NCBI GenBank assembly: GCA_041686855.1
Contig: JAWLDA010000001.1
Span: 111,700-175,699, forward strand
DNA length: 64,000 nt
Origin: Limnochordia bacterium
GTDB taxonomy: Bacteria > Bacillota > Limnochordia > DTU080 > RSA5
Direction of reading: 5' to 3'
In this document: positions 39,021 to 61,635 of the stretch, piece after piece
Position numbering within the stretch: the stretch's first letter is position 1
How the letters are laid out: every line of letters starts with the position of its first letter
Position numbers and translations under genes: made by a program
Notes under the pieces: generated by a model
What the model was told of the DNA's origin: nothing
What the model saw: only the letters and a program-made list of their open reading frames with translations
The model's database searches: none

Positions 39021-39181
39021 GCGATTTTCGCCTCCATGTTTCGACCAGTCCCGGTAAATACCCAAAAGCTTTTAGAAAGACAAGGAAGAACTGGTCCGTA
39101 GGAGAAAAGTGACAAACAAGTGTATTGGGGGAAATTGCAACAAATCGACACCTACACTTCACAAAGGAGCGAGTCACTAAT

Positions 39182-41502: not shown

Positions 41503-41525
41503 ATGAAGAGCGCGGATAATTGAAG

Positions 41526-41578
41526 GGCGCTGACGTGGAATGGCACTGACGAGGGCGCTGACGTGGAATGGCGCTGAT
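41526..41578 (+). promoter_or_regulatory. 24-bp direct repeat x2 (GGGCGCTGACGTGGAATGGCRCTGA) upstream of hypothetical gene
   Basis: Two near-identical copies separated by 4 bp, 20-70 bp upstream of the 41596 start. Candidate regulator binding site. Confidence 0.35.
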
Positions 41579-41595
41579 GAAGAAGGGCTCGTGAG

Positions 41596-42762
41596 ATGAC
41601 GATCAATGCGTGTATTCCTATCGCCGTTCAGGTGGTGATCGACGACGTCGGCTGGTGGTCGGGCGCGAACGATAGTGAGCGGGGCGGTCCCTACCGCACG
41701 GGTATCGATCGGGATCACGTACCCGCAGATTACGAAGCGATCGTTGAGTTAGGCAGGCGGCTCGGGGTGCGTCCCCAGGCCGCCCTCATCCTGTGTGAAT
41801 GGGACCGGACAAACATATTGCGCAATCTCCCGACAGCAACGTGGATGGGCGCAGCATGGGATAATCGCAAGTGGGTCGGACCGTGGCTCGAGGAAGCGGC
41901 TCGCATCATGGGCGAGAACTCCGAGTACATAGAGTTGACGCTTCACGGCATCGGACACGAGTACTGGCAGGACGGCGCCTTTACCCGGGCGGAATGGTAC
42001 GATTCCGAGTATCGCATGCGTCCGGAGTCCGATGTACGAGCGCGACTCGAGCTCTTTGCCGAAATCATGCGGCAGAATGAGTTGGGACCTCTCCCGACCT
42101 CAATGGTGCCCCCTGCCTACAAATACCGCTTTCGTGATCCGAGCGGGTTTGCCTCGATGATGCGTGAGAACGGCATCCAAAGCGTTACGACGGTGACCCC
42201 GCACATGCTGAAGCACACCGGGCAAACGATGGAATCGCCCTGGTTTGGCATCGACGCCGGCCTCCTCATCGTTGAGTGGGGAGCGTCGGTGACGGGGCGG
42301 GGAGGCACCCTTCCCTGGTACGTGATCGAGCCCGACCTGTCGGAGACACGTGAAGTGGAAGGGCCGACCCTGGGACTTCACTGGCCCAACCTTCTTCACA
42401 CGGATCCGGCGCGCAACTCCGAGGTGATCGACCGGTGGGTGGCGTATCTTGGAGGGTATCGTGACCGCTTTGATCGGATGCTCGCCCGGGACTCAGTCCA
42501 ATGCCACACGCAGCTTTTGTATCAGTGGGGAACGGACGTAAGGGTCGACGACGAGCGCACGGTCCATTGCGATTTCACCCGTCTAGACCAGCTTGGCTAC
42601 CAAGGGCTAGGCGATGAGTTTGTCTTGCGCGTCGAGACGCCGCGTACAGCCTCTCGTACACTGCGATTTGCAGCAGATCTGAGCGCGACGCCTGTGGGAG
42701 ACGGAGCCGCAGGCGGGTTTGCATCCTTTAGAGTCCGGCGGCGCCAAGGCGCGGGAGCGTGA
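41596..42762 (+). CDS. hypothetical protein (Trp-rich, HGIGHEYW motif); no family recognised
   Basis: 388-aa ORF with good codon usage, sitting between the M20 and Gfo genes. I could not assign a family from sequence alone. Confidence 0.6.
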   Translation: MTINACIPIAVQVVIDDVGWWSGANDSERGGPYRTGIDRDHVPADYEAIVELGRRLGVRPQAALILCEWDRTNILRNLPTATWMGAAWDNRKWVGPWLEEAARIMGENSEYIELTLHGIGHEYWQDGAFTRAEWYDSEYRMRPESDVRARLELFAEIMRQNELGPLPTSMVPPAYKYRFRDPSGFASMMRENGIQSVTTVTPHMLKHTGQTMESPWFGIDAGLLIVEWGASVTGRGGTLPWYVIEPDLSETREVEGPTLGLHWPNLLHTDPARNSEVIDRWVAYLGGYRDRFDRMLARDSVQCHTQLLYQWGTDVRVDDERTVHCDFTRLDQLGYQGLGDEFVLRVETPRTASRTLRFAADLSATPVGDGAAGGFASFRVRRRQGAGA

Positions 42763-42837
42763 CGTAGACGAGGAGTACGAAAGGCGTCCGCCGGATGTTT
42801 GTCCGATGTGTGGTCAATGAGTTGAAGGAGGAGAAGT

Positions 42838-43845
42838 GTGGTGAGCTTACGGATTGGATTGGTTGGCGCGGGGGGCATCGGCGCCCACCATGCGGCGCGG
42901 TATTCCGAGGTCGAGAACGCCCAACTTACCGCTGTCGTGGACATCGATACGGAGAGGGCGAACGCCCTCGCTAAAGAGTACGGTATTGAGAATGTCTACG
43001 CTTCGGTCGACGAGGCGGTGGCGTCGGGCACCTTTGACGCCGTCGATATTTGTCTGCCGACCTGGTTGCACGCGGACGCCGCGGTGGCCGCTGCGAAAGC
43101 CGGGAAGCATGTCCTCTGCGAGAAACCGATGGCGACGACGCTTGAAGAAGGGGACCAGATGATCCAAGCGGCCCGGCAAGCCGGCGTCGTCCTTATGATT
43201 GCGCAGTGCCGGCGTTACGACAACTTTTGGGGCGCAGTGCGGGATGCATTGGCGGACGGCGCCATCGGCGGGCCCGTCGTGTGGCGGGATGTGAGCGGCA
43301 GTAACGGTCCTGGACCCGCGTGGTTCTACGATCGCCACAAAGGGCTGGGTCCGCTCGTCGACGGCGCCATTCACAACTACGACTTCGCCCGGACCATGTT
43401 TGGCGAAGCGACCTCGGTGTACGCTACCGGCCGCTCCTTTAAGGATGTGACCGCTGTGGATACAGGGATTGCGGTCATTCGGTTCGAACGGGGCGACGAG
43501 CTTCAGTTGACGTGGTCGTGGGGCCTACCCAAAGGGGTGCGGGCCAACGGGGGTCACGATATCTTGGGTCCCAAGGGCGTGCTCTTTTTTGCGCCACCCG
43601 CTTTTGTCAAGGCGCCGGAGTGCCCGGAAGGGCACCGTCAAGTGGTCGCGGTGCGCGAGGGCGGGGAAGTGGTTCCGTACCAGTATAAGGTGAACGACAT
43701 GTATCGCGAAGAGATTCAAGCGTTTGTCGACAGCGTCGCCGGCAAGCGCGAGGCTTACCCCGACGGCGAGGACGCCAAGAGAAGTCTGGCGATTGGCATG
43801 GCCGTCTTGGAGTCTGCAGAGAGTGGTAAGTTGGTTCACCTCTAG
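42838..43845 (+). CDS. Gfo/Idh/MocA family oxidoreductase
   Basis: LRIGLVGAGGIGAHHAARY Rossmann motif. CEKPMA motif. GTG start with GAAGGAGGAG upstream. Confidence 0.85.
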   Translation: MVSLRIGLVGAGGIGAHHAARYSEVENAQLTAVVDIDTERANALAKEYGIENVYASVDEAVASGTFDAVDICLPTWLHADAAVAAAKAGKHVLCEKPMATTLEEGDQMIQAARQAGVVLMIAQCRRYDNFWGAVRDALADGAIGGPVVWRDVSGSNGPGPAWFYDRHKGLGPLVDGAIHNYDFARTMFGEATSVYATGRSFKDVTAVDTGIAVIRFERGDELQLTWSWGLPKGVRANGGHDILGPKGVLFFAPPAFVKAPECPEGHRQVVAVREGGEVVPYQYKVNDMYREEIQAFVDSVAGKREAYPDGEDAKRSLAIGMAVLESAESGKLVHL

Positions 43846-43905
43846 ACAGGATTGCGGTTACACGCGAGTAGCGTTCAATGAGTAAGTAATAAGTAAGCGA
43901 TGAGC

Positions 43906-43934
43906 AGAGGCGCCCCGCCAAAGGGCGCCTCTGT
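43906..43934 (+). terminator. rho-independent-type terminator (CAGAGGCGCCC-N7-GGGCGCCTCTG followed by T-rich tract)
   Basis: Perfect 11-bp stem 60 bp after the Gfo stop, followed by TTACTACTTGTTCTCTTTCG. Confidence 0.6.
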
Positions 43935-44056
43935 TACTACTTGTTCTCTTTCGTGTTTCCGGCTTTACTCTTCTTTCTCGCTCTCTTCTTACTCTGCACT
44001 GCCATTAGGTTTGCCGGTCCGCCGGTCCGCCGGTTGTCTGTCGCAGGCCTCTGTGA

Positions 44057-45601
44057 TCAAGACTCTTGAAACGCTTGTAAAGGGCCGGCGTAGGGAGCGT
44101 GTTCGAAACGGCAGGGCGTTTCGAACACCCGCGGGTCGTCTTGCCCAGTGAGCACTTCCATGAGCTGGGCTGAGAGCTCGGCCTTCACGTTTTGGTACTC
44201 CGCATGATCCGCCACATTCACCATGTAGTGGCGGTCGGTGCGCAAATCGTACAACTCTTCTTTGGGCCGCTTACCAAAGGCCAAATCAAAGAGGGGTTTC
44301 ACCTCCTCGTCGCTTCGATGGTAAATCATCCAAGCCTTGGTAGGGCTGGCGTCCAAGTCTTTGTAGACGATCCTCGTATCCGACTTGAGCTGTTCGTAAG
44401 GGGGAGGCTCGGTATCGGGGCGATCTAAGCCGCCCGGATCCCCCATGGGCCAACGGTCCGGCTCGAAGTTGATAATGTAAAGATACTCTCCGGTGCGAAT
44501 CGCCCGCTGAGGGTAAGGGAGGCCACCCTCACGGGCGACGTGAACGTGGCGTTCCCGTCCGGTCACGACAAAGGTGCGATCCTGCTCGATGTGTCCACTT
44601 TCCCGGCTGGTGAGGATCGGCATCAGGCTGTGGGCGGTCATTGACTTGGGTACTTCTACACCTGCTGCCTCCAAAAAGGTGGGCGCAAGATCCATAATGT
44701 TGACGAAATCCTCGACCACACGCCCCGCAGCGACCTGCCCAGGCCAGCGCATCGCTAAGGCGACTTCACAGCCGATATCGTACAAGTTGCATTTAGCCCG
44801 CGGCATCCCCGGGATCCCGTGGTCTCCACTCACGACGACGAGGGTGTTCTCCAATTCACCCATCTCTTCGAGACGCTGTAAAATGACCCCGAGACCGGCG
44901 TCAAAGGCCAGCGCTTCGCCGAGGTAATCGCAGAAGTCTTCGCGCACCTCATGGACGTCAGGCAGAAACGCCGGCATTCGACCCCCCAGATCGTCAGGCT
45001 CCAGTCCCCACAGCGCTTTACCAGAGCCCTGCTCCCACGTGCGGTGTGTGTTGGTCGGTCCCCACCAGTAGCAAAAGGGTTTGCCCTTAGGCCTCGCAGC
45101 GAGAAAGTCGTCGAAGTTGGCGAGCACCTCGTCCAGGAGCTCCTGTTTTGCAGCATCGATGCCAATCTCTTGAGCCCGGTTTGTCGCATGATGGGAGAAG
45201 CGGTTGAAATGCGTACCCGCCTTGTTATACGCGGTGCGACTCCCTCCATGAGGGGCGTTCGCGGGTTTGCCGGGGCCCCAGACTTTGTACGTGTGACCGA
45301 TGTGGTATCCCGCCCGCTCCAGTTCCAGTGGATAGGAGGGGATCGTCTCGTCCCAGACTGCCCCTCGGAGAATCGCTCCCAGCCCGGTCTGCCAAAAGTA
45401 CCGTCCTGATAAGACCGAACTGCGGCACGGCGTACAGCTCGGCGCGGGCACATACGCGTTGGTAAAGAGGGCTCCTTCGCCGGCCACTCGATCAAAGTGG
45501 GGCGTGGAGATGAGATGGTTGACGGAATTGGGGGCTTCGTGCGCCGCATACGCACTGGCGTAGCGCCCCCAGTCATCGGCAAACGCAAAAAGGATGTTCA
45601 T
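44057..45601 (-). CDS. sulfatase (Cys-type formylglycine sulfatase), apparently cytoplasmic
   Basis: CTPCRSSVLSGRY sulfatase signature. No signal peptide. Start at Met19 (MNILFAF) with GGGAG upstream. Confidence 0.85.
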   Translation of the reverse strand: MNILFAFADDWGRYASAYAAHEAPNSVNHLISTPHFDRVAGEGALFTNAYVPAPSCTPCRSSVLSGRYFWQTGLGAILRGAVWDETIPSYPLELERAGYHIGHTYKVWGPGKPANAPHGGSRTAYNKAGTHFNRFSHHATNRAQEIGIDAAKQELLDEVLANFDDFLAARPKGKPFCYWWGPTNTHRTWEQGSGKALWGLEPDDLGGRMPAFLPDVHEVREDFCDYLGEALAFDAGLGVILQRLEEMGELENTLVVVSGDHGIPGMPRAKCNLYDIGCEVALAMRWPGQVAAGRVVEDFVNIMDLAPTFLEAAGVEVPKSMTAHSLMPILTSRESGHIEQDRTFVVTGRERHVHVAREGGLPYPQRAIRTGEYLYIINFEPDRWPMGDPGGLDRPDTEPPPYEQLKSDTRIVYKDLDASPTKAWMIYHRSDEEVKPLFDLAFGKRPKEELYDLRTDRHYMVNVADHAEYQNVKAELSAQLMEVLTGQDDPRVFETPCRFEHAPYAGPLQAFQES

Positions 45602-45792
45602 GCGTCCATCACTCCCAAAGATAGATGGGCATGCATTCCCGACCCGCTTTTTCAATCCCTTCGGCGCCTCGACTCCCGCTCGCGTCTCTTAGGCGCCTCG
45701 GGAAATGGGTCTTATTGCAGGGCTATAGAGGGATTGCGTAGATTGTTAAAGAAGCGGGAACGATCACACTCTTTGAAAAGGGAGAGAGGAAT

Positions 45793-46965
45793 GTGAGCTC
45801 CTCTGCGCGGCCGGTAACCGATCCCAATGCTCGCCGAGCAAAGAAGTCTGAGTATTACATTGTAGACTGTGATGTTCACCACACGTTTAAATCGATCAAG
45901 GAGTTGTACCCCTACTTTCCGTCAGTCTACAGGGAACGACTTGAGGAGTTTGGCGTCTCTCAAGGTGGTGGCCCTGGGTACCTTAACGGCGGCTATCGGG
46001 GACGGCGGGACGACTCCTTCCCCAAAGAGGGCCCCTCAGGCTCTGACTACGATCTACTGCGAGAGCAACTTCTAGATGAATTTGACATCGACTACGCCGT
46101 GCTCACAGGGGATAACATCGCCGGGCTGATGGCCGGACCGGACCCGGATTTTGCGGCTGCAACGGCCAGGGCATTCAATGAATGGACGTATGAGACGTGG
46201 ATGTCTAGAGACGATCGCTTCCTTGGTTCCATCTATGTCGCACCGCAAGATCCGCACCTGGCGGCGCAGGAGATTGACCGCTGGAGCGAGCATCCGCGCA
46301 TGGTCCAGGCGTACGCCATCGCAGGAGCCCGCTTCCTTTACGGCCAGCGCTACTATTACCCGATCTACGAAGCGTGTTGTCGCAACGGTATTCCCTTTGC
46401 CGTTCACGTCACGGGCGAAGGCTCCGGGATCAACCCACCACCGACGGCCGCCGGTTACCCCACCTACTACATCGAGATGCGGATGCTCCGCTCGTCGATT
46501 TTTCAAGCGCACATCGTCAGCATGGTGACGGAAGGGGTGTTTGAGCGCTTTCCCGATCTCAAGGTGAATATGATCGAGGGTGGGACTGCATGGGTGCCCG
46601 CCATGATGTGGAAGTTCGATCAGGATTGGAAAGCTCTGCGTGACCAGACGCCTTGGATTAAGCGGCGACCCAGTGAGTATATCAAGGAGCACGTGCGCTT
46701 CACAACCCAGCCGTTGGAGGAGCCGGAGAACCCCAAGGATATCTTGACGATCTTTGATTGGATGGATGGAGCAAGCACCTTGATGTTCTCCAGCGACTAC
46801 CCTCACTGGGATTTCGACTCCCCTGAGCGCACTTTCCCCAAGATGCCCAAGGATCAACTTCAGCGCATCTTGGCAGTCAACGCCGCCGAACTATACGGAT
46901 TGAAGCTCGAAGGGAAAGGGGCCTCCGAGACTGCCAGATCCCCTCGTTCTCCCCAGACCGCATAA
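45793..46965 (+). CDS. amidohydrolase-2 family metal-dependent hydrolase
   Basis: VDCDVHH N-terminal metal motif. HVTGEG, DYPHWD and TIM-barrel hydrolase pattern. GTG start. Confidence 0.75.
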   Translation: MSSSARPVTDPNARRAKKSEYYIVDCDVHHTFKSIKELYPYFPSVYRERLEEFGVSQGGGPGYLNGGYRGRRDDSFPKEGPSGSDYDLLREQLLDEFDIDYAVLTGDNIAGLMAGPDPDFAAATARAFNEWTYETWMSRDDRFLGSIYVAPQDPHLAAQEIDRWSEHPRMVQAYAIAGARFLYGQRYYYPIYEACCRNGIPFAVHVTGEGSGINPPPTAAGYPTYYIEMRMLRSSIFQAHIVSMVTEGVFERFPDLKVNMIEGGTAWVPAMMWKFDQDWKALRDQTPWIKRRPSEYIKEHVRFTTQPLEEPENPKDILTIFDWMDGASTLMFSSDYPHWDFDSPERTFPKMPKDQLQRILAVNAAELYGLKLEGKGASETARSPRSPQTA

Positions 46966-46988
46966 TCGAACAAATAACGTGACGGGGA

Positions 46989-47399
46989 GTGAATGAAGTG
47001 GCCACGCATACTCGACAAAAGCACGTGGTCTGTCGCACGGACGAGCTCCCTCCCGGGGAGCGGAAGATTGTGGAGGTGGCCGGTCGGTCGATCGGTGTGT
47101 TCAACATCGGTGGGACGTATTACGCCCTGCGCAACCTTTGTCCGCACAAGGGCGCTGAGCTGTGCAGAGGGAGGCTCACCGGTCTCATGTTGGGTGAGAA
47201 CCCGCAGGAGTTGCGGTACGAACGGGTGGGAGAGGTGCTCCGTTGTCCCTGGCACGGCTGGGAGTTTGACGTCAAGACAGGGAAGATGGTGATCCAGCCT
47301 GGGATGAGAGTGAAGACCTACGACGTCTCGGTGGAAGAGGTCTCCGTCGAACAATTCCATGTCTCCGTGGAAGGTGAAGCTGTCGTGCTCCATGTATAA
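46989..47399 (+). CDS. Rieske [2Fe-2S] domain protein (stand-alone)
   Basis: CPHKGAEL and CPWHGWEF Rieske boxes. 136 aa. Confidence 0.8.
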   Translation: MNEVATHTRQKHVVCRTDELPPGERKIVEVAGRSIGVFNIGGTYYALRNLCPHKGAELCRGRLTGLMLGENPQELRYERVGEVLRCPWHGWEFDVKTGKMVIQPGMRVKTYDVSVEEVSVEQFHVSVEGEAVVLHV

Positions 47400-47439
47400 A
47401 TGGAAGAGTATTCAAACTCCGACTCCTAGAGGAGAGATA

Positions 47440-48303
47440 GTGTTGAAGATCGTGGGTATCACCTTGCCCTACAGCCATCTGTCGTTTGAGCGGGCGCTGG
47501 AGGGGATTGCCAAGGCTGGGTATACGCACGTCGGCTTCGGACTTAAGCATTCCGGGGAGCTTGTGCCGCCCTTGGATGCCCCGGCGGCCGAGTGGAAGCA
47601 GGTTGCAGACCTGTGTGCCCGCTACGGTTTGACTCCGGCGTCTATCTTTGGTCGAGCGGGCGTCAAGGACGCAACCCAGACCGATCAAATCGACGTTTAC
47701 AAGCGGGAGATCGACGCGGCAGCCGGTGTCGGGATCAGGTACATAACCAGCGCGGGTATTTGGGGTTACAAGTCGTTTCCGGACGTACCGCTCACCGAAG
47801 AGGAGATGGCTGCGCCCCACGAGTCGTTTGTGCGGGCGATGCGGATACTCGGTGAGCACGCGCACCGCCAGGGTGTGACGATCGTCCTCAAGCCCCACAC
47901 GGGCGATACGGCGACGGCAGAGATTTTGCTCAAGACCTTGTCGGAGATCGGGAGCCCGGCCGTCAAGGCGTTTTACGATCCCGGGAACGTCCGTTTCTAC
48001 GAGGGGATCGATCCGGCGGAGGACGTGAAGCTCATCGAGGGTGATATGCCTCTGATCTGCGCAAAAGACCATCGTGGACCGCGCGCGGTAGGAGATTTTC
48101 CGATTCCTGGTGAGGGCGACGTGGATTTTCCCGCGATCTTTAGACACCTGCATGCGATTGGCTTTGATGGAATGGTGACGGTCGAGCGGGTCGACGGCAG
48201 CGACAAAGCCGCTGACCTCACCGCCGACGAGATTGATGCACGGATGCGGCGGGCCCGCGAGAATCTGGAGCGGATCGCGCGGGAAGCGGGGTATGCGCTG
48301 TGA
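47440..48303 (+). CDS. sugar phosphate isomerase/epimerase (xylose-isomerase-like TIM barrel)
   Basis: ITLPYSHLSFERALEGIAKAGYTHVGFGLKHSG is paralogous to the 54279-55124 protein. Start at GTG/TTG after AGGAGAG. The antisense ORF 47272-48153 is rejected. Confidence 0.8.
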   Translation: MLKIVGITLPYSHLSFERALEGIAKAGYTHVGFGLKHSGELVPPLDAPAAEWKQVADLCARYGLTPASIFGRAGVKDATQTDQIDVYKREIDAAAGVGIRYITSAGIWGYKSFPDVPLTEEEMAAPHESFVRAMRILGEHAHRQGVTIVLKPHTGDTATAEILLKTLSEIGSPAVKAFYDPGNVRFYEGIDPAEDVKLIEGDMPLICAKDHRGPRAVGDFPIPGEGDVDFPAIFRHLHAIGFDGMVTVERVDGSDKAADLTADEIDARMRRARENLERIAREAGYAL

Positions 48304-49484
48304 GGCTGCCCGAGTCGCCTGCGGACGTCCTCAACATCGCTGTCGTCGGCACGGGGGGGCGGGCGGCAAGTCATCTCGAGACGATTCAGACCTTGAAGGA
48401 TCTTTACCGCCTCTCGGCCGTTTGCGACGTGATGCCGGGACGAGCCGATGAGGTTGGTGGGCGTCTGGGGGTTCCGGGATATACAATCCTCGATGAGATG
48501 CTCGAGCAGGAGCGTCCCGACGTTGTGCTGATCACCGTTCCACCCGAGTATCACCACACGGTCGCCTACAAAGCGATGGAGTACGGCGCCCATGTCATCT
48601 GTGAGACGCCCATAGCGATTGCGCTTCCATACGCCGATGCGATGATCAATTTGGCCAAGGAGAAGGGCGTCGCAATCGAAGTGGCGGAGAACGTGTGGCG
48701 GCATCCCGAAGAGCGCTTTAAGAGAATGATTGTAGACTCCGGAATGCTTGGGGACGTGCGAGTGATGCACATGCACTACTCAGCTGGTTCCTACCACGGC
48801 ATGAGTGCTGTCCGAAACCTCATCACCTCCAATCCGGTTCGGGCGATCGGGATGGCACGCCTGATGAAGGCACCGAAGCGGCGCAAATACGTCGACCCGT
48901 TCCACTTCCGCACCTTTGGTCCGCCGGGGGATCAGCCACCTGCCCACCTTTCGGAGTCCGACCTCGCGAGTTGGGAAGCGGGGATGATCGAGTTTGACGA
49001 CGGTGCGGTGGTCAGTTACGAGTTTCCCATGGCCAGCCCATCGGGTCGTGGATGGGATCTACAGGCGACCGAAGGATGGATGTCCCTCACCGAGGTCGTG
49101 CTGATGAACGAGCCCCAACGGCGCTACCGGATCGTGACCGAGTATGACGGGGAGGGCGAGAGTCGTGTACTCACCTCCGTGCGCCTCTACGATGGGGATC
49201 GACCGCTCTCAGATGTCGTGTGGGAGAATCCATTTCTGCGCTACAAGACGAAAGGCCCTGACGACGTAGCCCGAATCGACCAACTGGTGAGCGTCTATCG
49301 CTCGCGAACCGAAGGGATCCAACCGGAGTACGACGGTCATGAAGGTCGCAAGGATATGGAACTCTTGATCGCGGTGCGGGAGTCTGCCCGACTGGGTAGC
49401 CAACCTGTTGCACTCCCCCTGAACGAAGTGACGGGGTATGAAAGGCGGCTCTTTCCCGTTTACGGAGAGCCTCCAGGGAGGTGA
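48300..49484 (+). CDS. Gfo/Idh/MocA family oxidoreductase
   Basis: LNIAVVGTGGRAASH Rossmann motif. GTGA overlap with the upstream gene. Confidence 0.8.
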   Translation: MRLPESPADVLNIAVVGTGGRAASHLETIQTLKDLYRLSAVCDVMPGRADEVGGRLGVPGYTILDEMLEQERPDVVLITVPPEYHHTVAYKAMEYGAHVICETPIAIALPYADAMINLAKEKGVAIEVAENVWRHPEERFKRMIVDSGMLGDVRVMHMHYSAGSYHGMSAVRNLITSNPVRAIGMARLMKAPKRRKYVDPFHFRTFGPPGDQPPAHLSESDLASWEAGMIEFDDGAVVSYEFPMASPSGRGWDLQATEGWMSLTEVVLMNEPQRRYRIVTEYDGEGESRVLTSVRLYDGDRPLSDVVWENPFLRYKTKGPDDVARIDQLVSVYRSRTEGIQPEYDGHEGRKDMELLIAVRESARLGSQPVALPLNEVTGYERRLFPVYGEPPGR

Positions 49485-50050
49485 CGGCGGTGCCGGCACG
49501 ATTTTTGATGGTTCGTCCAGACTTGGAGGCTCTTCCGCAATTAAATCTGCCCGAAGGGTACACCCTCCGCACGTATGTCGATGGGGACGAAGAGGCCTGG
49601 TGCGCCCTGATGGAAGGCGAGATCGGAACGGGGTGGACGTTGAAGAAGTGGCGTACGGATATGGCCGGGCAACCGCAGTTCGATCCCCAAGGGCTTTATT
49701 TTATTGAGATAGAGGGGCGTCCCGTCGCTTCGGCATGTGCCTGGTCTCTCCCGGACAAATACGGGCCCCAGACCGGGGTGCTGCACATGGTGGCCGTACA
49801 TCCCGACCACAGGGGCAAGCGATTGGGCAAAGAGGTGAGCCTGGCCGTGCTGCACTTCTTCCGGGAGCACGGCTACAGCGACGCAGCGCTACATACCGAT
49901 GAGGAACGACCGGCGGCAATTCGGACGTACTTCAACCTCGGTTTTCGGCCCAGTTTTCGTTCGGACGACGAGAAGGCCGGCTGGGAGCGGGTGACCCAGC
50001 ATTGGCCGGAATTGGGCCAAGAACGACCCAAAGAGGGGACAAGCGCGTGA
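49481..50050 (+). CDS. GNAT family N-acetyltransferase
   Basis: HMVAVHPDHRGKRLGK acetyl-CoA-binding motif. GTGA overlaps on both sides. Confidence 0.75.
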   Translation: MTAVPARFLMVRPDLEALPQLNLPEGYTLRTYVDGDEEAWCALMEGEIGTGWTLKKWRTDMAGQPQFDPQGLYFIEIEGRPVASACAWSLPDKYGPQTGVLHMVAVHPDHRGKRLGKEVSLAVLHFFREHGYSDAALHTDEERPAAIRTYFNLGFRPSFRSDDEKAGWERVTQHWPELGQERPKEGTSA

Positions 50051-51015
50051 AAGACGAGATTCGAATCGGGTTGATAGGATGCGGGGTGCGCAGTCGCGTC
50101 CACATCGCTGGGTTTGGTGGAACGGCGAATGCTCGGATCGCGGCCGTCTGCGACGTGGATGACCAGAAGGCACTGGAGGTCGGGAACACGCTGGGCGTCC
50201 CGGCCTATCAGGATGCAGCCGCCATGCTCGAGAATGAGCAGATCGACGCAGCGTGCATCGTGGCGCCGGCGTTTGTTCGAGGCGTCATCGAAGACGTCTG
50301 CATTGACGCAGGCGTGCCGTTTCTGCTTGAGAAGCCGGTCGCCGTCGAGGTCGAGATTGCAGCGCGCATCTCGGAGCGGTTGAGAGCCTCGGGCCTTATG
50401 GCCTGTATCGGCTATCAATTGCGCTACGGGGCGGAGGCGCGGGCGATTCGCCGCTGGAGTGAGGGGCGGCAGATCGGGCTCACTGAGGGCAGGTACTGGA
50501 GTGGCTCCGCTCGCCGGCGGCCCGAAGTTGCGGAGAATCCTCGCATCGGGGGCCAATTGATTGAGCAGGTGACGCATACGTTTGATCTCATGCGCTATTG
50601 GATGGGAGACGTCGAAGAGGTCTTCTCGTACCAGACGCGCAGCTTGGTCGAGCGCGCCGGAACGGCCAACGACTCGTCGGCCGTGGCACTTAAGTTCGCC
50701 GATGGCGCCGTTGGATCGACTCTAGCGACTTGGGGCTCCTCCGCCAAGTATGGTGAAGCCAACGTCGTCACACTCTTCGCCGGAGAGAATCGGGTTGAGT
50801 ATCGCACCGGCAAGGCGCCCATGACGCCACAAGGGCCTCTTGAGACTGTCGATGGGCCGACGCTGCACGAAGCGTTTGTGGAGGCAGTTCGTACAGGTGA
50901 TCCTGCGGGCATCCTCTCTCCGTACGACGATGCGCTGCAGACGCTTTTGGTTTCGGTGGCAGCCAACGAGTCGGCCCGCACGGGGAAACCAGTGCGCATT
51001 GATCGTTTGATCTAA
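50047..51015 (+). CDS. Gfo/Idh/MocA family oxidoreductase
   Basis: IRIGLIGCGVRSRVH Rossmann motif. LEKPVA motif. GTG start with AGAGGGG upstream. Confidence 0.85.
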   Translation: MKDEIRIGLIGCGVRSRVHIAGFGGTANARIAAVCDVDDQKALEVGNTLGVPAYQDAAAMLENEQIDAACIVAPAFVRGVIEDVCIDAGVPFLLEKPVAVEVEIAARISERLRASGLMACIGYQLRYGAEARAIRRWSEGRQIGLTEGRYWSGSARRRPEVAENPRIGGQLIEQVTHTFDLMRYWMGDVEEVFSYQTRSLVERAGTANDSSAVALKFADGAVGSTLATWGSSAKYGEANVVTLFAGENRVEYRTGKAPMTPQGPLETVDGPTLHEAFVEAVRTGDPAGILSPYDDALQTLLVSVAANESARTGKPVRIDRLI

Positions 51016-51040
51016 GGCGAGTATACGAGGAGGCTCGGAG

Positions 51041-52888
51041 ATGTCGGGACTCTTTTTGGTGAAAGACGGGCAACCGACCAGCGTGATCGTGCGCGAAGTG
51101 GCAGCGGGGCTCAATGCGCCTTTGGACGATGCAATCGAGGAGTTGCAGGAGGCGGTACGACGGGCGAGTGGGGCGACGCTTGATCTCGTCTCGCCGCTCC
51201 AATTCGCCGATCTCCCCAAAGAGGTTGTACGCATCTCCGTGGGTCCGACCCGTCTGACGCGCGCACTCGGAATCGACCCCGAGAGTTTGCCACCAGAGAC
51301 GTTTCGAGTCGTGGCTCGGGAGAATTCACTCGCCCTTGTCGGTAGCGCCCTCACGCCCGATGCTACGCTTTGGGCCGTTGTCCACTTTCTCGATCGATGC
51401 TTGGGAGTGCGCTGGCTATGGCCGGGAGAGACCGGCACTTACGTCCCAAAGCACTCGACCATCTCCCTGCCCTCAATCGATGTGACAGCGCGCCCTGGCC
51501 TCGAGAAGCGTAACTTGCGCGTCTCGGCATTGGCTCCCAAGGAAGGGACACGGTGGCTACGGGTCCACCAGATGGGGAGTCGCAGTCAATACTCGTTTGG
51601 GCACGCGTTTATGCATTGGTGGGACGCGTACCATGTGGAGCATCCAAAGCTTTTCGCGGTGCCCCCGCCAGGAAAAGAGCAAGTACGGGGAGACCGGGTC
51701 AAGCTCAACATTGCCAATCCGTCGATCGATGACGTCATCCTCCGGGAGTGGCAGGCAGCCGGTACGCCGGATAACTGGAATGTCTCTCCCAACGACGGGA
51801 CTGGCTTTTGCACGTGCGATGCGTGTCGGGCGATGGATGTTCCCACAGACCAGCCGCCTGAGGAGATTTGGGCGGGCAAGGCGAAACTGGCCGCACGGTA
51901 CGTGCGCTTTTGGAATCGACTCCTTGCAAAGATGCGGGCGATCAATCCGCGGGCGACACTCTCCGCGTATGCGTACAGTGCCTATCGGGACCTGCCCCCG
52001 GAAGTGCGACTACAAGACGGCATTGTGTTAGGTTTTGTGCACACCTACTGGGCCCAGGAGCGTTGGCAGGCATGGTCGGCTGCCGGAGCCAAGCTGCTCC
52101 TCCGTCCCAACTGGTGGTACTCCGGCGGTATCGCTCCCCACCTTCCCCTGCACTCACAAGGGGAGTTCTTTCAGTTTGCTCAGGAGAACGGCATGATTGG
52201 GTTTGACTTTGACACTCTGCACGGACACTGGGCGACGCAAGGCGTGCTCTATTACCTCATTGCACGATTAGCTGAACGCCCGGAACTCTCCATCGACGAC
52301 GTAATCCGGGAGTATGCGTCCGCCTTTGGCCGTGCGGCGCCCGCGATCGTCGAGTACATCTCGTACTGGGAGCGTTTCTCGGAGGAAGCCGCCGTCCCCG
52401 CCGCCGCGGGCGGCGTCGTCACCCAGGAGAGGCGAGGGCGGTATGAGGAGATTGCCGAAGCGTACGGCGTGCCCCTCCATCCTATCACGGGGAGTTACCC
52501 CGCTTTGCAATACCTGTACACCGACGACGTTATCCATGACGCGCGCTCGATTCTTGACAGGGCGGAGGCGTTGGCACAGGACGACGAGGACATCGTCCAC
52601 GAGCGGATTGCTTTCTTGCGAGATGGGTTGCGTCACGTGGAGCTGACTCGGGACCTGGTGAGCATCGGGTACGAGGGGGCGCCGGACGATGACGCTTCTG
52701 CCGCGTTTGGGAAGATGCGTGAAGAGTTGGAGCGTTTCCGTGCGGACGCCTCTGAGCGACATGTCGTCTGGGCGCCCGTTCTGGCCGCGTACGAGGCGCG
52801 TCGTCAGATTCCCACTCACGAGAGTCGGATCGTGCGTCGTAAGGAGGAGCTCGCGCAAATCAATCAGAGTGAGCGTCACTTCGGGTGA
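51041..52888 (+). CDS. DUF4838-like domain protein (glycoside-hydrolase-related fold, function unknown)
   Basis: N-terminal segment LFLVKDGQPTSVIV..A.EELQE and the CTCDACRAMD cysteine motif resemble DUF4838 proteins. GAGGAGG 8 bp before ATG. Assignment made from memory, not by search. Confidence 0.5.
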   Translation: MSGLFLVKDGQPTSVIVREVAAGLNAPLDDAIEELQEAVRRASGATLDLVSPLQFADLPKEVVRISVGPTRLTRALGIDPESLPPETFRVVARENSLALVGSALTPDATLWAVVHFLDRCLGVRWLWPGETGTYVPKHSTISLPSIDVTARPGLEKRNLRVSALAPKEGTRWLRVHQMGSRSQYSFGHAFMHWWDAYHVEHPKLFAVPPPGKEQVRGDRVKLNIANPSIDDVILREWQAAGTPDNWNVSPNDGTGFCTCDACRAMDVPTDQPPEEIWAGKAKLAARYVRFWNRLLAKMRAINPRATLSAYAYSAYRDLPPEVRLQDGIVLGFVHTYWAQERWQAWSAAGAKLLLRPNWWYSGGIAPHLPLHSQGEFFQFAQENGMIGFDFDTLHGHWATQGVLYYLIARLAERPELSIDDVIREYASAFGRAAPAIVEYISYWERFSEEAAVPAAAGGVVTQERRGRYEEIAEAYGVPLHPITGSYPALQYLYTDDVIHDARSILDRAEALAQDDEDIVHERIAFLRDGLRHVELTRDLVSIGYEGAPDDDASAAFGKMREELERFRADASERHVVWAPVLAAYEARRQIPTHESRIVRRKEELAQINQSERHFG

Positions 52889-52918: not shown

Positions 52919-54217
52919 CTACTCTTCGGCGAGGATCGCGTTGATTTGGCGAGAAGCCTCCGCCAATGCTTCGCCGGCACCGATCCGGCCAGCCAAGATG
53001 TTGAGGCTCACCTGTGTCAACGTGCGGCGAATCTCGGGCTTGGGGTAGCGAGGCAGGGGCGTGAATGTGTTCATGGTCTCATTCCAGACGGCTTCCACCG
53101 CGGTGCGAAACTGCCCGTAGCTCATCTGGAGATCGATATGAGGCCTCACGAGGCTTCGTTGATTGGGTATGTTCCCGAGTTGTGTCATCTGGTACTCGGC
53201 TTGGTGTGGAACAATAAACTTGAGGACTTCCCAGGCTGCGTCTGTTCGTGGAGACGCAGCGTTAATCATCCATGGCTGGAACGAGGCCATGGTATGCCGT
53301 CCAGCCGGCCCTGACGGGTATGGGACGTAGTCGGGCAGATACGGGAAGAGACCGATGTGAAAGGCGGTAGGCGTGCCCTGGTCAAAGACGACGTCCCCGC
53401 TCTCGCGCCGCTCGTACGTACCGGGCGCCTCCAGATCAGCAATGACGATCGCGTCTCTTACGACTTGGTCGGCCATCCACTCGTACGCCGTCACCGTTTC
53501 GAGCGAGTTGATCGCCGTCTGATTGCTGTCGACCGACATCACGTTGCCGCCGAAGTTCCAAATAAACGGCCATTCGTTGAACGCGGAACTCGCCGTACCC
53601 AGGAGACCGATCTGGACGAGATGCCCTTCGCCTTCACGTTCGGTCACTTTCGTCGCGTAAAGGGCGAAGGTCTCCTGATCCCACCGACCCGCATCGAAGA
53701 GAGCGTTGGGGTCTTCGAGGCCGGCCGCGTTGAGCGCGGCGGCGTGGTACGCCATGGGCTTGACGTAAACGGATCCGGGGATGCCGACGGTCTTCCCGTT
53801 GTACCGATCGAAAAAGAGGAGCTCTTGCGCGAAGTCACGCTCCTGCGCTAAAAAGCCGTCGAGCGGGAGGGCAGAGTTGGTCAAGTAAACACTGTTCGCG
53901 TCCTCCGGCTCCATAATAAAGAGATCCGGCGCCTCGTCTCCAAGGGTTGCGAGCATGACAAGGACTTTCTCTGCGTACTCGGAGGCGCGCCCGGGGACGA
54001 CCATCAAATTGATGTCGATGTTGGGGTGGTCAAACTCCTGAAGTAGCCGTTGTAAATTGGGTTGGGGGCCGGCCTCTTCGACGAACTGTCCCCACACGGC
54101 CACATTGACGGTCGTTGCCGCGGCGCTTTGCGCTGAAACAGGGCGCACAGCGGCTCCAAACGCCCCAACCAGCGCTATGAGGACTCCAATGAGAAACGGG
54201 TTCGCCATTCGATGCAC
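52919..54217 (-). CDS. ABC transporter substrate-binding protein (carbohydrate), orphan
   Basis: Signal peptide MANPFLIGVLIALVGAFGAAVRPVSAQS. SBP family-1 pattern. GAGGGA upstream of GTG. Confidence 0.85.
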   Translation of the reverse strand: MHRMANPFLIGVLIALVGAFGAAVRPVSAQSAAATTVNVAVWGQFVEEAGPQPNLQRLLQEFDHPNIDINLMVVPGRASEYAEKVLVMLATLGDEAPDLFIMEPEDANSVYLTNSALPLDGFLAQERDFAQELLFFDRYNGKTVGIPGSVYVKPMAYHAAALNAAGLEDPNALFDAGRWDQETFALYATKVTEREGEGHLVQIGLLGTASSAFNEWPFIWNFGGNVMSVDSNQTAINSLETVTAYEWMADQVVRDAIVIADLEAPGTYERRESGDVVFDQGTPTAFHIGLFPYLPDYVPYPSGPAGRHTMASFQPWMINAASPRTDAAWEVLKFIVPHQAEYQMTQLGNIPNQRSLVRPHIDLQMSYGQFRTAVEAVWNETMNTFTPLPRYPKPEIRRTLTQVSLNILAGRIGAGEALAEASRQINAILAEE

Positions 54218-54278
54218 GGTCGCATCCCTCCCCTCAAAACAATATCAGAAAACCTCTATGCGAGCCATGGTCTCGCCG

Positions 54279-55124
54279 TTACGCTTGCGCCATGGCTCGC
54301 TCAATGTTCTCGCGGGCCACGAGAATGCGACGGTCCAACTCCTGCGCTGACGCCGGTTCACGATCGGTGCCATCAAGTCGTTCAATCACGACAGGGCCGT
54401 CGAAGCCTCTCTGCTTAAGCACCCGAAAGATGCGCACCCAATCAATATCACCCTCACACGGGATCGGGAAGTTCACTTCGGCTCGAGCGCCCTTGTGGTC
54501 CTTGGCGATCAAGCAGTGAATCTCGTCTGCGATATACTCGAGATCCTCTTCGGGCGAGATCCCCTCGTAAAAGCGGACGTTGCCTGGATCGTAACATCCC
54601 CGCACACTCGGATGACCCACATCGGCGAGGGTCTTGGCGAGCACGCGCGCCGTTGCGGTGTTCCCTGTGTGCGGCTTAAATGTGATGGTGATGCCTCGGG
54701 TTGCCGCGTGCTCGGCGACCGGCTTCACTCGCTCTAGGAAGATTTGGTGCTCACGTTTTTGTTCGGCGGCGGGCTTTGGCTCTTCGGGGGCCTGGGTGTA
54801 CCCAAACACCCGGTAGCCAAAGGGTCCGAGCCAGACGACCATTTTAGCGCCGACGTCCGCGGCGAAGTCAATGCGGCGTTGCATCTCTTCGACCTCGAGG
54901 TTCATCACTTGGACTCCGTAAAGGACAGAGGGCTGGAGTCGATACGCTTCGCACATACGCGCGACTCGGGAAGCTTCGGACGGCGTGTGCTCTTGGGGTA
55001 CACCGACGCCGGCATGGCGCAGGCCAAATCCGACGAAGCGGTAGCCGGCCCCGGCGACACCTTCGAGCGCGCGTTCAAAGGGGTAACGGGCGTACGGCAA
55101 GGTGAAACAGACGAGCTCAGACAT
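54279..55124 (-). CDS. sugar phosphate isomerase/epimerase (xylose-isomerase-like TIM barrel)
   Basis: FTLPYARYPFERALEGVAGAGYRFVGFGLRHAG. Paralogous to the 47440-48303 protein. Confidence 0.85.
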   Translation of the reverse strand: MSELVCFTLPYARYPFERALEGVAGAGYRFVGFGLRHAGVGVPQEHTPSEASRVARMCEAYRLQPSVLYGVQVMNLEVEEMQRRIDFAADVGAKMVVWLGPFGYRVFGYTQAPEEPKPAAEQKREHQIFLERVKPVAEHAATRGITITFKPHTGNTATARVLAKTLADVGHPSVRGCYDPGNVRFYEGISPEEDLEYIADEIHCLIAKDHKGARAEVNFPIPCEGDIDWVRIFRVLKQRGFDGPVVIERLDGTDREPASAQELDRRILVARENIERAMAQA

Positions 55125-55242
55125 TAAAGGTCACCTCAAAATGAGCATGGAGTGGGTCAAGAGATGCACGGTTGTATCGCGTTGGAATTCATCGAAGGGG
55201 AGCACGCTCCTGCGGAGTGTCCTGGCTCGCTTTGGGAGGTGT

Positions 55243-55926
55243 CTAGCGATGGTCGCGCAAAGCGATGGCGATGTCGGGACGATCGGTGGTGATACCGTCT
55301 GGCTGTAACGCCATCGTAGAACGGATCGCCTCCTCGGTAATTGGATTCCACGCGCGCACAAAGAGTCCAAGCTCGCGGCAGAGGCGTAGGTGCTCTCGCG
55401 TCAGCGCGGTGTAGTGAATCCCCACACCCTGAGCACCTAGACGTGCAGCGCTGTGTAAGTCCGAGTCCGCAGGAGTGTGGAAGGGCAGTCCGACTGAGAG
55501 ACGGGGCTCGAGCTGCTTAGCTTGCGAGACTGTGATGATGCTACCGGTAACGATGACGAGTTCGAGAAGGTTGTGAGCGCACACGGCAGCCAACGTCCCG
55601 TCGACGGCTTCGGGCGCTTTGATCTCCAAGAGCGCGGGGATTTGGCGACCGGCGATCAGTGCCAACATCTCGTCTAGGAGTGGGACACGCTCCCCGTTGC
55701 CGGCGTCGAGAGAGCGGATTTCGCTCAAGGAGAGCGAAGAGACGGGGCCGCTTCCGTTGGTCGTGCGATCGACTGTGGCGTCGTGCATCAACACGAGATG
55801 CCCGTCGGCGGTGGCGCGGATATCGCACTCAAGCATGTCGACTCCGAGACGGATCGCTTCCTCAAATCCGAGTAATGTATTCTCCGGTTTGAGACCGGCG
55901 GCACCGCGGTGACCGATGACGATCAT
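55243..55926 (-). CDS. glycerophosphodiester phosphodiesterase (GDPD family)
   Basis: IGHRGA...ENT...ECD and LMHD motifs characteristic of GDPD. Confidence 0.85.
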   Translation of the reverse strand: MIVIGHRGAAGLKPENTLLGFEEAIRLGVDMLECDIRATADGHLVLMHDATVDRTTNGSGPVSSLSLSEIRSLDAGNGERVPLLDEMLALIAGRQIPALLEIKAPEAVDGTLAAVCAHNLLELVIVTGSIITVSQAKQLEPRLSVGLPFHTPADSDLHSAARLGAQGVGIHYTALTREHLRLCRELGLFVRAWNPITEEAIRSTMALQPDGITTDRPDIAIALRDHR

Positions 55927-56196: not shown

Positions 56197-56346
56197 ACCC
56201 CTATCGCGTGTGTCATCGTTGGGTCTTTTAGTTGGATCTTAATCATAATGCATGGCCTTACTCTTTGACGGAACCTGTGGGTCACCTCCTAAAAATTCAA
56301 AAATAAACACCGAATGTGATGTCGAAGATTGTCGTAACGTTGTGTT

Positions 56347-56375
56347 TGACACCGCCAACACAATTAGGTAAAATC
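56347..56375 (+). promoter_or_regulatory. near-consensus sigma70 promoter TTGACA-N17-TAAAAT upstream of cysD
   Basis: Perfect -35 hexamer and TAAAAT -10 hexamer with 17-bp spacing, ~55 bp upstream of the cysD ATG. Confidence 0.5.
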
Positions 56376-56427: not shown

Positions 56428-57309
56428 ATGGATTATCTCCAACGACTCGAGAATCGCAGTATTCACATCCTGCGCGAGGCCTACAGCGGCTTTCGCCAAT
56501 TGGGCATGCTCTGGTCCATCGGCAAGGATAGCACCGTCTTGCTGTGGCTGGCTCGCAAAGCCTTCTTTGGGCACGTTCCTTTCCCGCTCATTCACGTCGA
56601 CACCAGTTACAAGATCCCCGAAATGATCGAGTACCGTGACCGCTTGGCCCGCGAGTGGCGCCTCGATATGATCTACGGCCAAAACCAGGCTGCGCTCGAG
56701 GCCAAGCAGACCTTCCCCGAAGGCAACGCAACGCGCCTCGAGTGCTGCAAAGCGCTTAAGACACAAGCGTTGATCAACACGCTCAACGGCGAGTGGCCCC
56801 GCTTTCGACTCAACCACGAGATGGGCGAGTACGAGCCCGACGCCAATACGGAGGCGTACACCGGAGTGATTGTCGGGGTCCGCTCAGACGAAGAAGGGAC
56901 TCGCTCTAAGGAGCGTTACTTCTCGGCCCGCGGCGCCAACAGCGAGTGGGATTTCGGCGATCAGCCCCCTGAGTTTTGGAACCAGTACAAAACCGACTTC
57001 GCACCGGGGACACATGTGCGGATTCACCCCTTACTCGACTGGACGGAGTTGAACATTTGGGAGTACATCGACCGGGAGAAGATTCCCGTGGTCTCCCTCT
57101 ACTTTGACCAAGGCACCGGGACGCGCTACCGCTCGCTTGGGTGCGCTCCGTGTACCAAACCCGTGGAGTCGACTGCTCGCAACGTGAAGGAGATCATCGC
57201 AGAGTTGGCGACGGGGAAGTTTGCAAATGTCGCCGAGCGATCTGGAAGGGAGCAGGACAAAGAAGATGGCGGTGGACTTGAAGCGCTTCGCAGAGAAGGG
57301 TACATGTAA
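56428..57309 (+). CDS. cysD: sulfate adenylyltransferase subunit 2
   Basis: PP-loop motif SIGKDS. Full-length similarity to the CysD pattern. Start of the sulfate-assimilation operon. Confidence 0.9.
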
Positions 57310-61634: not shown

Positions 61635-61635
61635 G

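Follow-up and report, generated by a model that had tools for sequence, protein, structure and literature searches.

Within a 64,000-nucleotide (nt) stretch of the genome of a Limnochordia bacterium (contig JAWLDA010000001.1; the whole stretch is called the window below), seven co-directional open reading frames (ORFs) occupy positions 45793-52888 of the plus strand and face a divergent sulfatase gene. A previous sequence-only reading had listed the same seven plus-strand genes, which the ORF table bore out, and had named domains that all agreed with Pfam (Amidohydro_2, Rieske, AP_endonuc_2, two GFO_IDH_MocA, Acetyltransf_1 and DUF4838). We propose, with moderate confidence, that these genes make up a lineage-specific composite operon, in which an oxygenase module (module A, 45793-47399) stands before a carbohydrate-directed set (module B, 47440-52888, together with the sulfatase). 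Start codons were rechecked by ribosome-binding sites, by alignment with an orthologous contig (L003) and by exact look-up of alternative translations among public proteins, and the features are as follows ('public start', start codon of the public gene call).

45793-46965, plus strand: amidohydrolase-related dinuclear oxygenase (ARO) of the SfbO type; 390 amino acids (aa), public start at 45793.
46998-47399, plus strand: small Rieske [2Fe-2S] ferredoxin; 133 aa from the public start (GTG at 46998), or 136 aa from an alternative GTG at 46989.
47440-48303, plus strand: xylose-isomerase-like TIM-barrel protein of the keto-sugar epimerase, isomerase or dehydratase type (TIM); 287 aa, public start GTG at 47440.
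48300-49484, plus strand: Gfo/Idh/MocA NAD(P) oxidoreductase 1 (Gfo1); 394 aa, public start GTG at 48300.
49490-50050, plus strand: GNAT N-acetyltransferase; 186 aa, public start GTG at 49490.
50047-51015, plus strand: Gfo/Idh/MocA NAD(P) oxidoreductase 2 (Gfo2); 322 aa, public start GTG at 50047.
51041-52888, plus strand: candidate glycoside hydrolase of the DUF4838 family, cytoplasmic, with a GH163/GH185-type fold; 615 aa, public start at 51041.
44057-45601, minus strand: S1 sulfatase of the Cys type (formylglycine), cytoplasmic, divergent from the operon; 514 aa, start as in the public gene call.
45602-45792, no strand: divergent intergenic region with presumed promoters in both directions and a two-copy 16-nt direct repeat.

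The first gene encodes what is, judged by homology and motifs, an ARO of the SfbO type and not the metal amidohydrolase of the sequence-only reading. Its product matched Amidohydro_2 (PF04909) across the full profile (residues 25-370, 145.8 bits), and a phmmer search of the PDB matched it to SfbO (8SM6, E = 1e-105, 45% identity), 8SM7 (8e-101), 8SM9 (5e-82) and 8SM8 (4e-68), to AibH1H2 (6M1W and 8FUL, about 1e-57 to 1e-59) and, at merely 1e-14, to LigW-type decarboxylases. The ARO superfamily was defined in a 2026 paper by an N-terminal D-x-H motif and a C-terminal D-x-P-H-x-D/E motif preceded by at least about 200 residues (PMC13154177). Both were present: D27-V-H29, in the string VDCDVHH, aligned to the metal site 1 ligands D30-V-H32 of SfbO, and the loop D335-Y-P-H338-W-D340 supplied the ligands of metal site 2. 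D-x-H and D-x-P-H-W-D were invariant in 80 of 80 ARO relatives, and the two ARO-specific metal motifs are both missing from characterised PF04909 hydrolases and decarboxylases (PMC13154177). Low-potential AROs further have an aromatic residue at gamma4 and a hydrophobic one at gamma5, and co-occur with Rieske ferredoxins (PMC13154177); the window protein has W339 and F341 at these positions, the latter being Trp in SfbO.

SfbO, from Litorilinea aerophila, was found because PF04909 genes adjoin small Rieske ferredoxin genes; using a Mn/Fe or Fe2 site and O2, it hydroxylates the C-H next to nitrogen in aminoethylsulfonate buffers, freeing sulfoacetaldehyde, and its natural substrate is not known (PMC10811679). 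Its crystal structure holds a sulfate ion by N67, R232, R235 and W341 (PMC10811679), which align with N65, R230, R233 and W339 of the window ARO. This Asn/Arg/Arg pocket, with its Arg-x-x-Arg pair, is kept by the window protein but by only about 12 of the 80 relatives and, by analogy with SfbO, suggests that the substrate is anionic and probably carries a sulfate or sulfonate group. A fifth sulfate-binding residue is listed as Y280 (PMC10811679), a position that we counted as Asp in the 8SM6 chain; the tyrosines nearby are Y227, Y228 and Y287, and the other four residue numbers agree. The mismatch may come from an error of numbering or typesetting, or from a miscount on our side.

The second gene encodes a small Rieske protein without a catalytic domain (Pfam match, 69 bits), with cluster ligands C51-P-H53 and C86-P-W-H89 (136-aa numbering); among solved structures, it is closest to the Rieske ferredoxin components of dioxygenase systems. 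We scanned for ARO relatives using one genome per species (596 relatives), kept 80 loci with flanks of up to 10 kb per side and compared these by tblastn with all window proteins. In about 76 of the 80 loci, the ARO homolog had a Rieske homolog (32-58% identity) as its immediate neighbour; the loci came from Paenibacillus, Chloroflexota, Solirubrobacterales, Terriglobia, Opitutaceae, Latescibacterota, Gemmatimonadota, Planctomycetota and others. Such pairing indicates that the Rieske protein is the dedicated electron donor of the adjacent ARO; its oxygenase had previously been placed elsewhere in the genome. None of the other five operon genes was present at the 80 ARO loci, and the ARO-Rieske pair, as gene order indicates, is an independent and widely conserved two-gene module.

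These results bear on the pathway that the sequence-only reading had put forward, namely a single coherent seven-gene route with a hydrolytic amidohydrolase (a deacetylase, lactonase or decarboxylase) and a Rieske protein serving a distant oxygenase. The Pfam names agree with it, and PF04909 does include hydrolases and decarboxylases, but the presence of both ARO-specific metal motifs, the distance between the SfbO and the LigW-type matches, the conservation of the Rieske gene next to the ARO gene and the lack of conservation of the seven-gene order (below) make it extremely improbable.

A Pfam census of 59 neighbours of 10 ARO loci of the Arg/Arg type counted 10 AraC regulators, 7 further PF04909 paralogs, 6 ABC sugar permeases, 4 solute-binding proteins (SBPs), 2 sulfatases, 2 members of glycoside hydrolase (GH) family GH28 and 1 of GH97. 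These neighbourhoods are carbohydrate-type, with no single conserved partner, and the closest pocket-sharing ARO relatives, in Paenibacillus, lie in AraC/ABC-sugar loci. Several loci have two or three ARO paralogs in tandem or close together, namely L076:469-4859 and L082:6738-11125 (both Caldilineaceae metagenome-assembled genomes) and also L011 and L085; at L076, the paralogs are followed by a class-III aminotransferase gene and an aminoglycoside-phosphotransferase-like gene. Loci of this kind hint at multi-ARO pathways or at AibH1H2-style heteromers.

The closest described system is SfbO/SfbR of L. aerophila (PMC10811679, PMC13154177), with which the window pair shares the PF04909 fold, the metal motifs, the gamma4/gamma5 signature and the Asn/Arg/Arg pocket, as well as an adjacent small Rieske ferredoxin and the absence of a reductase in the same unit. 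It differs in context, since the window pair heads an operon with DUF4838, GNAT, TIM and two Gfo genes and faces a sulfatase. We know the likeness here from sequence and, with the native substrate of SfbO not known, claim no functional equivalence. The 2-aminoisobutyrate hydroxylase AibH1H2/AibG/AibF of Rhodococcus wratislaviensis (6M1W, 8FUL; PMC7782822, PMC10401708) likewise combines an amidohydrolase-fold dimetal hydroxylase with a small Rieske protein. However, its hydroxylase is built from two PF04909 proteins as a heterodimer and its operon also encodes a reductase, whereas the window has a single ARO gene in the operon and no ferredoxin reductase among the about 50 window ORFs that were scanned.

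At the other end of the operon, the protein previously described as a DUF4838 protein of unknown function carries a known catalytic domain. It matched PF16126 over the full profile (residues 127-440, 84 bits against a cutoff of 26.6), with no obvious signal peptide, and its AlphaFold2 model (predicted local distance difference test score (pLDDT) 93) showed a (beta/alpha)8 barrel with an N-terminal alpha/beta domain. Foldseek placed the model nearest to GH115 (7PXQ and 4C90, about 5e-12), then to GH84 O-GlcNAcases, GH67 and GH20. PF16126 is the catalytic domain of the GH163 endo-beta-N-acetylglucosaminidase BT1035 and of the GH185 enzyme Sp_0475, a cytoplasmic exo-6-sulfo-beta-N-acetylglucosaminidase (GlcNAcase) with a more than 110,000-fold preference for its sulfated substrate (PMC10570127). 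The nearest structures reported for Sp_0475 are GH115 4C90 and then 2V5C, the same pattern of GH115 followed by GH84 as in our model (PMC10570127). Sp_0475 uses substrate-assisted catalysis, for which the N-acetyl group of the substrate is required, with active-site residues Q174, H227, D309 and Y436 and a sulfate-binding R633 (PMC10570127). Invariant in our DUF4838 alignment (A1) were H188, N251-D252, Y312/Y315, R355 and R409, all active-site candidates only.

The window protein thus resembles GH163 and GH185 in its PF16126 domain and in its nearest solved fold neighbours, a likeness of domain and predicted fold; it resembles the GH185 cluster also in lacking an obvious signal peptide, and the adjacent sulfatase suggests a link to sulfated substrates as for Sp_0475. 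We found at least 336 DUF4838 homologs. A metagenome scan with the single DUF4838 sequence returned no relatives, and a scan with alignment A1 instead gave 80 metagenomic DUF4838 loci. The family falls into many distinct clusters in a similarity network (PMC10570127), and the cluster of the window protein, with relatives in Paenibacillus, Armatimonadota, Latescibacterota and Chloroflexota, may be a separate family.

The divergent ORF runs from 44057 to 45655 on the minus strand in the ORF table, and its protein starts at the ATG at 45601 with the N-terminus MNILFAFADDWG. It matched Sulfatase (PF00884, 92.5 bits) and SGSH_C (67 bits), has the formylglycine motif CTPCR at residues 56-60 and has an N-terminal metal-binding Asp-Asp within FADDWG. 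Because the protein has this N-terminus directly from the ATG, there is no signal peptide, and the description of a signal-peptide-less, Cys-type divergent sulfatase therefore stands. The best solved relatives were the GlcNAc-6-sulfatase 5G2V (4e-27), S1_8 sulfatases and human sulfamidase (4MHX, 1e-20); by these matches, the protein is related to hexosamine sulfatases. In the intergenic region (45602-45792), which matched neither the sigma-70 consensus nor Rfam, the 16-nt direct repeat occurs at 45656-45671 (TCCCTTCGGCGCCTCG) and 45685-45700 (TCTCTTAGGCGCCTCG), a spacing of 29 nt; judged by sequence, it may be a regulator site or may have arisen by chance.

The combination of a sulfatase, an N-acetyltransferase and a hexosaminidase-type hydrolase invites a comparison by analogy only. 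In lysosomal end-trimming of heparan sulfate, the sulfamidase SGSH is followed by the N-acetyltransferase HGSNAT and then by the N-acetylglucosaminidase NAGLU. The window likewise pairs an SGSH_C sulfatase with an N-acetyltransferase and a hydrolase of a type that needs the N-acetyl group. However, no window protein is homologous to HGSNAT or NAGLU (GH89), and known DUF4838 enzymes cut beta, not alpha, linkages, so that the likeness lies in how the parts would work.

Apart from this genome, we found the full seven-gene order in just one other public assembly, in which ARO, Gfo1 and DUF4838 are 99.5-99.7% identical. In the closest non-identical relatives, L003 and L004, the genes TIM-Gfo1-GNAT-Gfo2-DUF4838 stand together (identities: Gfo1 83%, TIM 82%, Gfo2 78%, GNAT 74%, DUF4838 69-71%). 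L003 has no ARO or Rieske gene, and a sulfatase gene lies divergently upstream of its TIM gene. This sulfatase is not orthologous to that of the window (25-32% identity in patches, CMPAR in place of CTPCR) and sits at the same divergent position, which suggests that a sulfatase of some kind, not this one, recurs beside the module. At L003:3-2243, a gene for a TauE/SafE-family membrane protein (sulfite-exporter type) adjoins the non-orthologous sulfatase. Further away, at L172-L174 (TIM 72%, GNAT 69%), TIM and GNAT alone are adjacent, GNAT directly after TIM, behind two SBP genes. Gfo1 had 63 homologs; those at 43-58% identity sat in different surroundings, which often included a TIM barrel but neither GNAT nor DUF4838. 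Across the ARO, DUF4838 and Gfo1 homolog loci, neither seven-gene nor five-gene synteny was found beyond close relatives.

Gene-order conservation was the check that the sequence-only reading had itself named for its single seven-gene module. The outcome went against it: nested sub-modules alone recur, and the seven genes are, on comparative grounds, a recent lineage-specific assembly of such modules and not a conserved pathway. As read from the loci compared, TIM-GNAT is the core of the nesting; Gfo1 adds to it, Gfo2 and DUF4838 with a divergent sulfatase form the next layer, and the ARO-Rieske pair is outermost. The SfbO-type pair was most likely added recently at the front of the operon. 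The DNA becomes alignable with L003 again only about 15-20 nt ahead of the TIM start, just before its ribosome-binding site, and the exact boundaries of the insertion are therefore undefinable. Composition was also considered as a sign of recent horizontal insertion of the pair and was set aside, there being no anomaly in GC content or in GC content at third codon positions (GC3).

At the gene junctions, two of the GTGA stop-start overlaps claimed earlier held and one did not. The 4-nt overlap of TIM and Gfo1 at 48300 is used by the public gene call and has an ATGA at the equivalent site of the L003 ortholog, and the Gfo2 start at 50047 agrees with the public 322-aa gene call. At 49481, the equivalent GTGA of L003 is out of frame and the L003 GNAT begins 7 nt past the stop codon; the GTG at 49490 corresponds in the alignment to the ATG of the L003 ortholog, and a GGAGG lies 9 nt upstream of this GTG. 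GNAT thus probably starts at 49490, with 49481 not a start, which would make the Gfo1/GNAT junction a 5-nt spacer. The remaining gaps are 32 nt between ARO and Rieske (to GTG 46998; 23 nt to 46989), 40 nt between Rieske and TIM and 25 nt between Gfo2 and DUF4838. Overlaps of 1 or 4 nt are routine across the window (29496, 30527, 33889/33892, 40213/40216, 59161, 60804), and the operon is therefore not singled out by its packing, which is this genome's usual style and no more than chance.

The seven genes probably share one transcript, as far as the sequence allows this to be judged. There was no convincing terminator within the operon, where terminator-like sites were fewer than in shuffled sequence, and no sigma-70 promoter or terminator signals above shuffle expectation marked sub-operons; the leader and neighbourhood matched no riboswitch or other RNA element in Rfam at E <= 0.1. 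Shared expression of modules A and B is probable because the Rieske-TIM gap is 40 nt and no convincing terminator lies there, and we also counted in its favour that GC3 of the ARO-Rieske pair is like that of its neighbours.

The same layout bears on the reading that the two modules are unrelated and merely adjacent, with a sulfonate or sulfate ester other than a sugar, such as an N-substituted taurine, as the substrate of the pair in sulfur or carbon scavenging. This would fit the occurrence of the pair without the other five genes, among very varied neighbours, in about 76 of the 80 loci, as well as the absence of the pair from L003, the nearest relative of module B. It would also fit the sole demonstrated activity of SfbO, dealkylation of aminoethylsulfonate buffers, and the sulfate-assimilation genes about 3.5 kb downstream (56428-61634). 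The 40-nt gap with no convincing terminator, the sulfatase next door and the mostly AraC, sugar-ABC and glycoside-hydrolase contexts of SfbO-like AROs elsewhere all argue the other way, and we regard mere adjacency as possible but somewhat unlikely.

The four middle genes gave family matches of a general kind. TIM matched AP_endonuc_2 (101 bits), and its AlphaFold2 model (pLDDT 96.7) found SCO6571, ketose 3-epimerases, UlaE and IolE as its top Foldseek neighbours (template modelling score 0.70-0.77). Gfo1 matched Pfam in its N-terminal domain alone, its C-terminal domain being divergent, and Gfo2 matched GFO_IDH_MocA and the C-terminal domains. Neither reached an NCBIfam equivalog cutoff: the top match of Gfo1 was UDP-N-acetylglucosamine (UDP-GlcNAc) 3-dehydrogenase (69 bits, cutoff 450), and the best of Gfo2 was IolG-like (103 bits, cutoff 355). 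GNAT matched Acetyltransf_1 (58 bits); mycothiol synthases, its sole relatives of known function and weak ones, acetylate a glucosamine-linked amine.

A TIM barrel labelled 'sugar phosphate isomerase' together with two Gfo proteins is also found in the levoglucosan system LgdA/B/C (PMC7676230) and in the AL/BT cluster (bioRxiv 10.1101/2024.03.25.586180). Both are sugar pathways of oxidation, elimination, hydration and reduction, the AL/BT pathway being an alternative mode of glycoside cleavage (PMC7676230; bioRxiv 10.1101/2024.03.25.586180). The window operon differs in having no DUF1080 partner and in Gfo scores far below the respective cutoffs (Gfo1: LgdA, levoglucosan dehydrogenase, 46 against 650 bits; BT_2158, 38 against 750; BT_2159, 28 against 650). 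Three AL proteins have signal peptides, whereas the window proteins appear cytoplasmic. No 3-keto-glycoside lyase was named among the top 50 TIM fold neighbours and TIM had no PDB match at 1e-5; together with the Gfo scores, this gives no support for counting the operon among the levoglucosan and 3-keto-glycoside lyase pathways.

Two further readings draw on the same middle genes. The moc genes act in rhizopine catabolism, and a rhizopine-like route for an amino-cyclitol or modified inositol would have the oxygenase remove a decoration, Gfo and TIM process the ring and GNAT act on the amine. The Rieske protein weakly matches the MocE family (TIGR02377, 24.6 bits), IolE for TIM and IolG for both Gfo proteins are the best or near-best NCBIfam matches, IolE is among the TIM fold neighbours, MshD (the best match of GNAT) acetylates a glucosaminyl-inositol conjugate and an SBP gene is adjacent. 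These scores are far under the family cutoffs (24.6 against 136 bits for Rieske, and 43 against 290 and 103 against 355 among the others), which gives no support for a place in the rhizopine (moc) family, and the DUF4838 hydrolase and the recurrent sulfatase would be left unexplained; we consider this route very unlikely. A biosynthetic cluster, in which a nucleotide amino sugar would be modified by 3-dehydrogenation and N-acetylation, could draw on the UDP-GlcNAc 3-dehydrogenase match of Gfo1 (69 bits) and on the presence of GNAT. That score is far under the 450-bit cutoff, the operon has no aminotransferase, glycosyltransferase or nucleotidyltransferase, genes for SBPs, esterases, glycoside hydrolases and regulators of sugar use surround it, and a glycoside hydrolase with a sulfatase indicates degradation. 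We give the biosynthetic interpretation hardly any credence.

The suggestion that the genes handle a sulfated and/or N-acetylated sugar is still the best reading, given the GH163/GH185 affinity of the DUF4838 protein, the hexosamine-sulfatase kin of the sulfatase and the recurrence of a sulfatase beside the module. We infer that the composite operon most likely processes a sulfated amino-sugar glycoside in the cytoplasm. An imported glycoside of this kind would first be trimmed by the oxygenase. If the oxygenase works as SfbO and AibH1H2 do, electrons would pass from the Rieske protein to its Mn/Fe or Fe2 site, where it activates O2 and hydroxylates a C-H bond; following the SfbO precedent, the hydroxylated carbon would lie beside a heteroatom and the product would collapse, with net dealkylation. 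Desulfation by the formylglycine sulfatase would come next, GNAT would N-acetylate the free amino sugar if needed and the DUF4838 hydrolase (beta-GlcNAc-type) would then cleave the glycoside. Gfo, TIM and Gfo could carry out the oxidation, rearrangement and reduction of the released sugar. Family membership, the conserved motifs, the pairing of ARO with Rieske and the mosaic history are what the sequences show; the substrate, the sequence of reactions, a common transcript and any tie in function between modules A and B are inferred.

A more specific claim is that the SfbO-type oxygenase is a true step of sulfated-glycan catabolism, oxidatively stripping an amino sugar of a sulfated, sulfonated or alkyl decoration. 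Hydroxylation would then occur at the decorated carbon, and the group would leave as an aldehyde together with sulfate, sulfite or a sulfo-aldehyde, before the sulfatase and the DUF4838 hydrolase act. We think this distinctly unlikely as stated.

Several observations weigh against the composite-operon reading and its sulfated amino-sugar substrate. The combination of modules A and B is confined to one organism and a near-identical assembly, and their adjacency could be incidental. Across the 80 metagenomic DUF4838 loci (30-51% identity), no adjacent module of TIM, Gfo1, GNAT and Gfo2 was kept; four of the loci had isolated weak matches to Gfo2 or GNAT. Sulfatase genes lay within the flanks of 14 of these 80 loci and of 7 of the 80 ARO loci, a difference too weak, and too confounded by taxonomy, to count as enrichment. 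The native substrate of SfbO, as said above, offers no guide. TIM has no NCBIfam equivalog or PDB sequence match at 1e-5 that would give it a specific function, and its fold matches are generic; the best functional matches of GNAT are weak (mycothiol synthase MshD, NCBIfam 41 bits; PDB 2C27, 4e-5). Among the scanned window ORFs, there was no formylglycine-generating enzyme (FGE, PF03781) or radical-SAM maturase (anSME) for the sulfatase, no ferredoxin reductase for the Rieske protein and no ABC permease (BPD_transp_1). Finally, paralogous Gfo, TIM and SBP genes abound throughout the window and are generic building blocks of this organism.

The 64-kb window is a sugar-catabolism island with at least nine Gfo genes and four AP_endonuc_2 TIM barrels, so that two Gfo genes and one TIM gene in the operon are unremarkable. 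It also holds acetyl-xylan or glucuronoyl-type esterases, GH88, S9 and S15 peptidases and AraC, ROK, LacI and GntR regulators. Six or seven SBP_bac_1 genes (for example, 3369-4724, 13153-14475, 20900-22243, 27318-28556 and 52919-54217) each adjoin Gfo and/or TIM-barrel genes, giving repeated SBP-TIM-Gfo triads with orphan binding proteins; no ABC ATPase gene was found among the scanned ORFs either.

Next to the operon, at 52919-55926 on the minus strand, a convergent set of a GDPD phosphodiesterase, a TIM barrel (45% identical to the operon TIM) and an SBP reaches to within 30 nt of the DUF4838 stop; the Gfo1 homolog at L001 likewise has GDPD and SBP genes in its vicinity. Upstream, a plus-strand operon at 39125-43845 encodes a Gfo protein, an M20 peptidase, a 388-aa protein (41596-42762, no Pfam or NCBIfam match) and a further Gfo protein, and is closed by a strong 13-bp hairpin with a T-rich tail, terminator-like, at 43903-43935. 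The Gfo1 homolog at L001 sits inside a Gfo-Gfo-Gfo-M20 block. Sulfate-assimilation genes, which begin about 3.5 kb downstream of the operon, extend over 56428-63946 (CysD-like, fused CysN/CysC, sulfite/nitrite reductase, a CysH-like phosphoadenylyl-sulfate (PAPS) reductase and a tetrapyrrole methylase), and in the region scanned for promoters a single strong sigma-70-like site was found, at 56346-56374, with 11 of 12 positions matching. A methylcitrate-cycle set lies within the sugar island at 31362-35578 (PrpD-like, citrate/methylcitrate synthase, phosphoenolpyruvate-mutase/isocitrate-lyase family and enoyl-CoA hydratase).

Coming from a single lineage, this case is a lead and not a result, and a clue rather than a new kind of system. 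It illustrates three annotation traps: proteins named 'Amidohydrolase 2' are oxygenases if they carry the D-x-H and D-x-P-H-x-D/E motifs, a small Rieske gene standing alone beside such an ARO encodes its reductant carrier, and DUF4838 is a glycoside-hydrolase domain. The locus provides a context clue to the physiological substrates of the orphan SfbO-type oxygenases, which are structurally and spectroscopically well studied: an ARO with a sulfate pocket, in an operon with a sulfatase and a hydrolase of the sulfo-hexosaminidase type, narrows the substrate search to sulfated or otherwise anionic sugars. If the oxygenase were a step in sulfated-glycan catabolism, this would give the orphan SfbO clade its first physiological substrate class, and an O2-dependent Mn/Fe enzyme would join the degradation of sulfated sugars.

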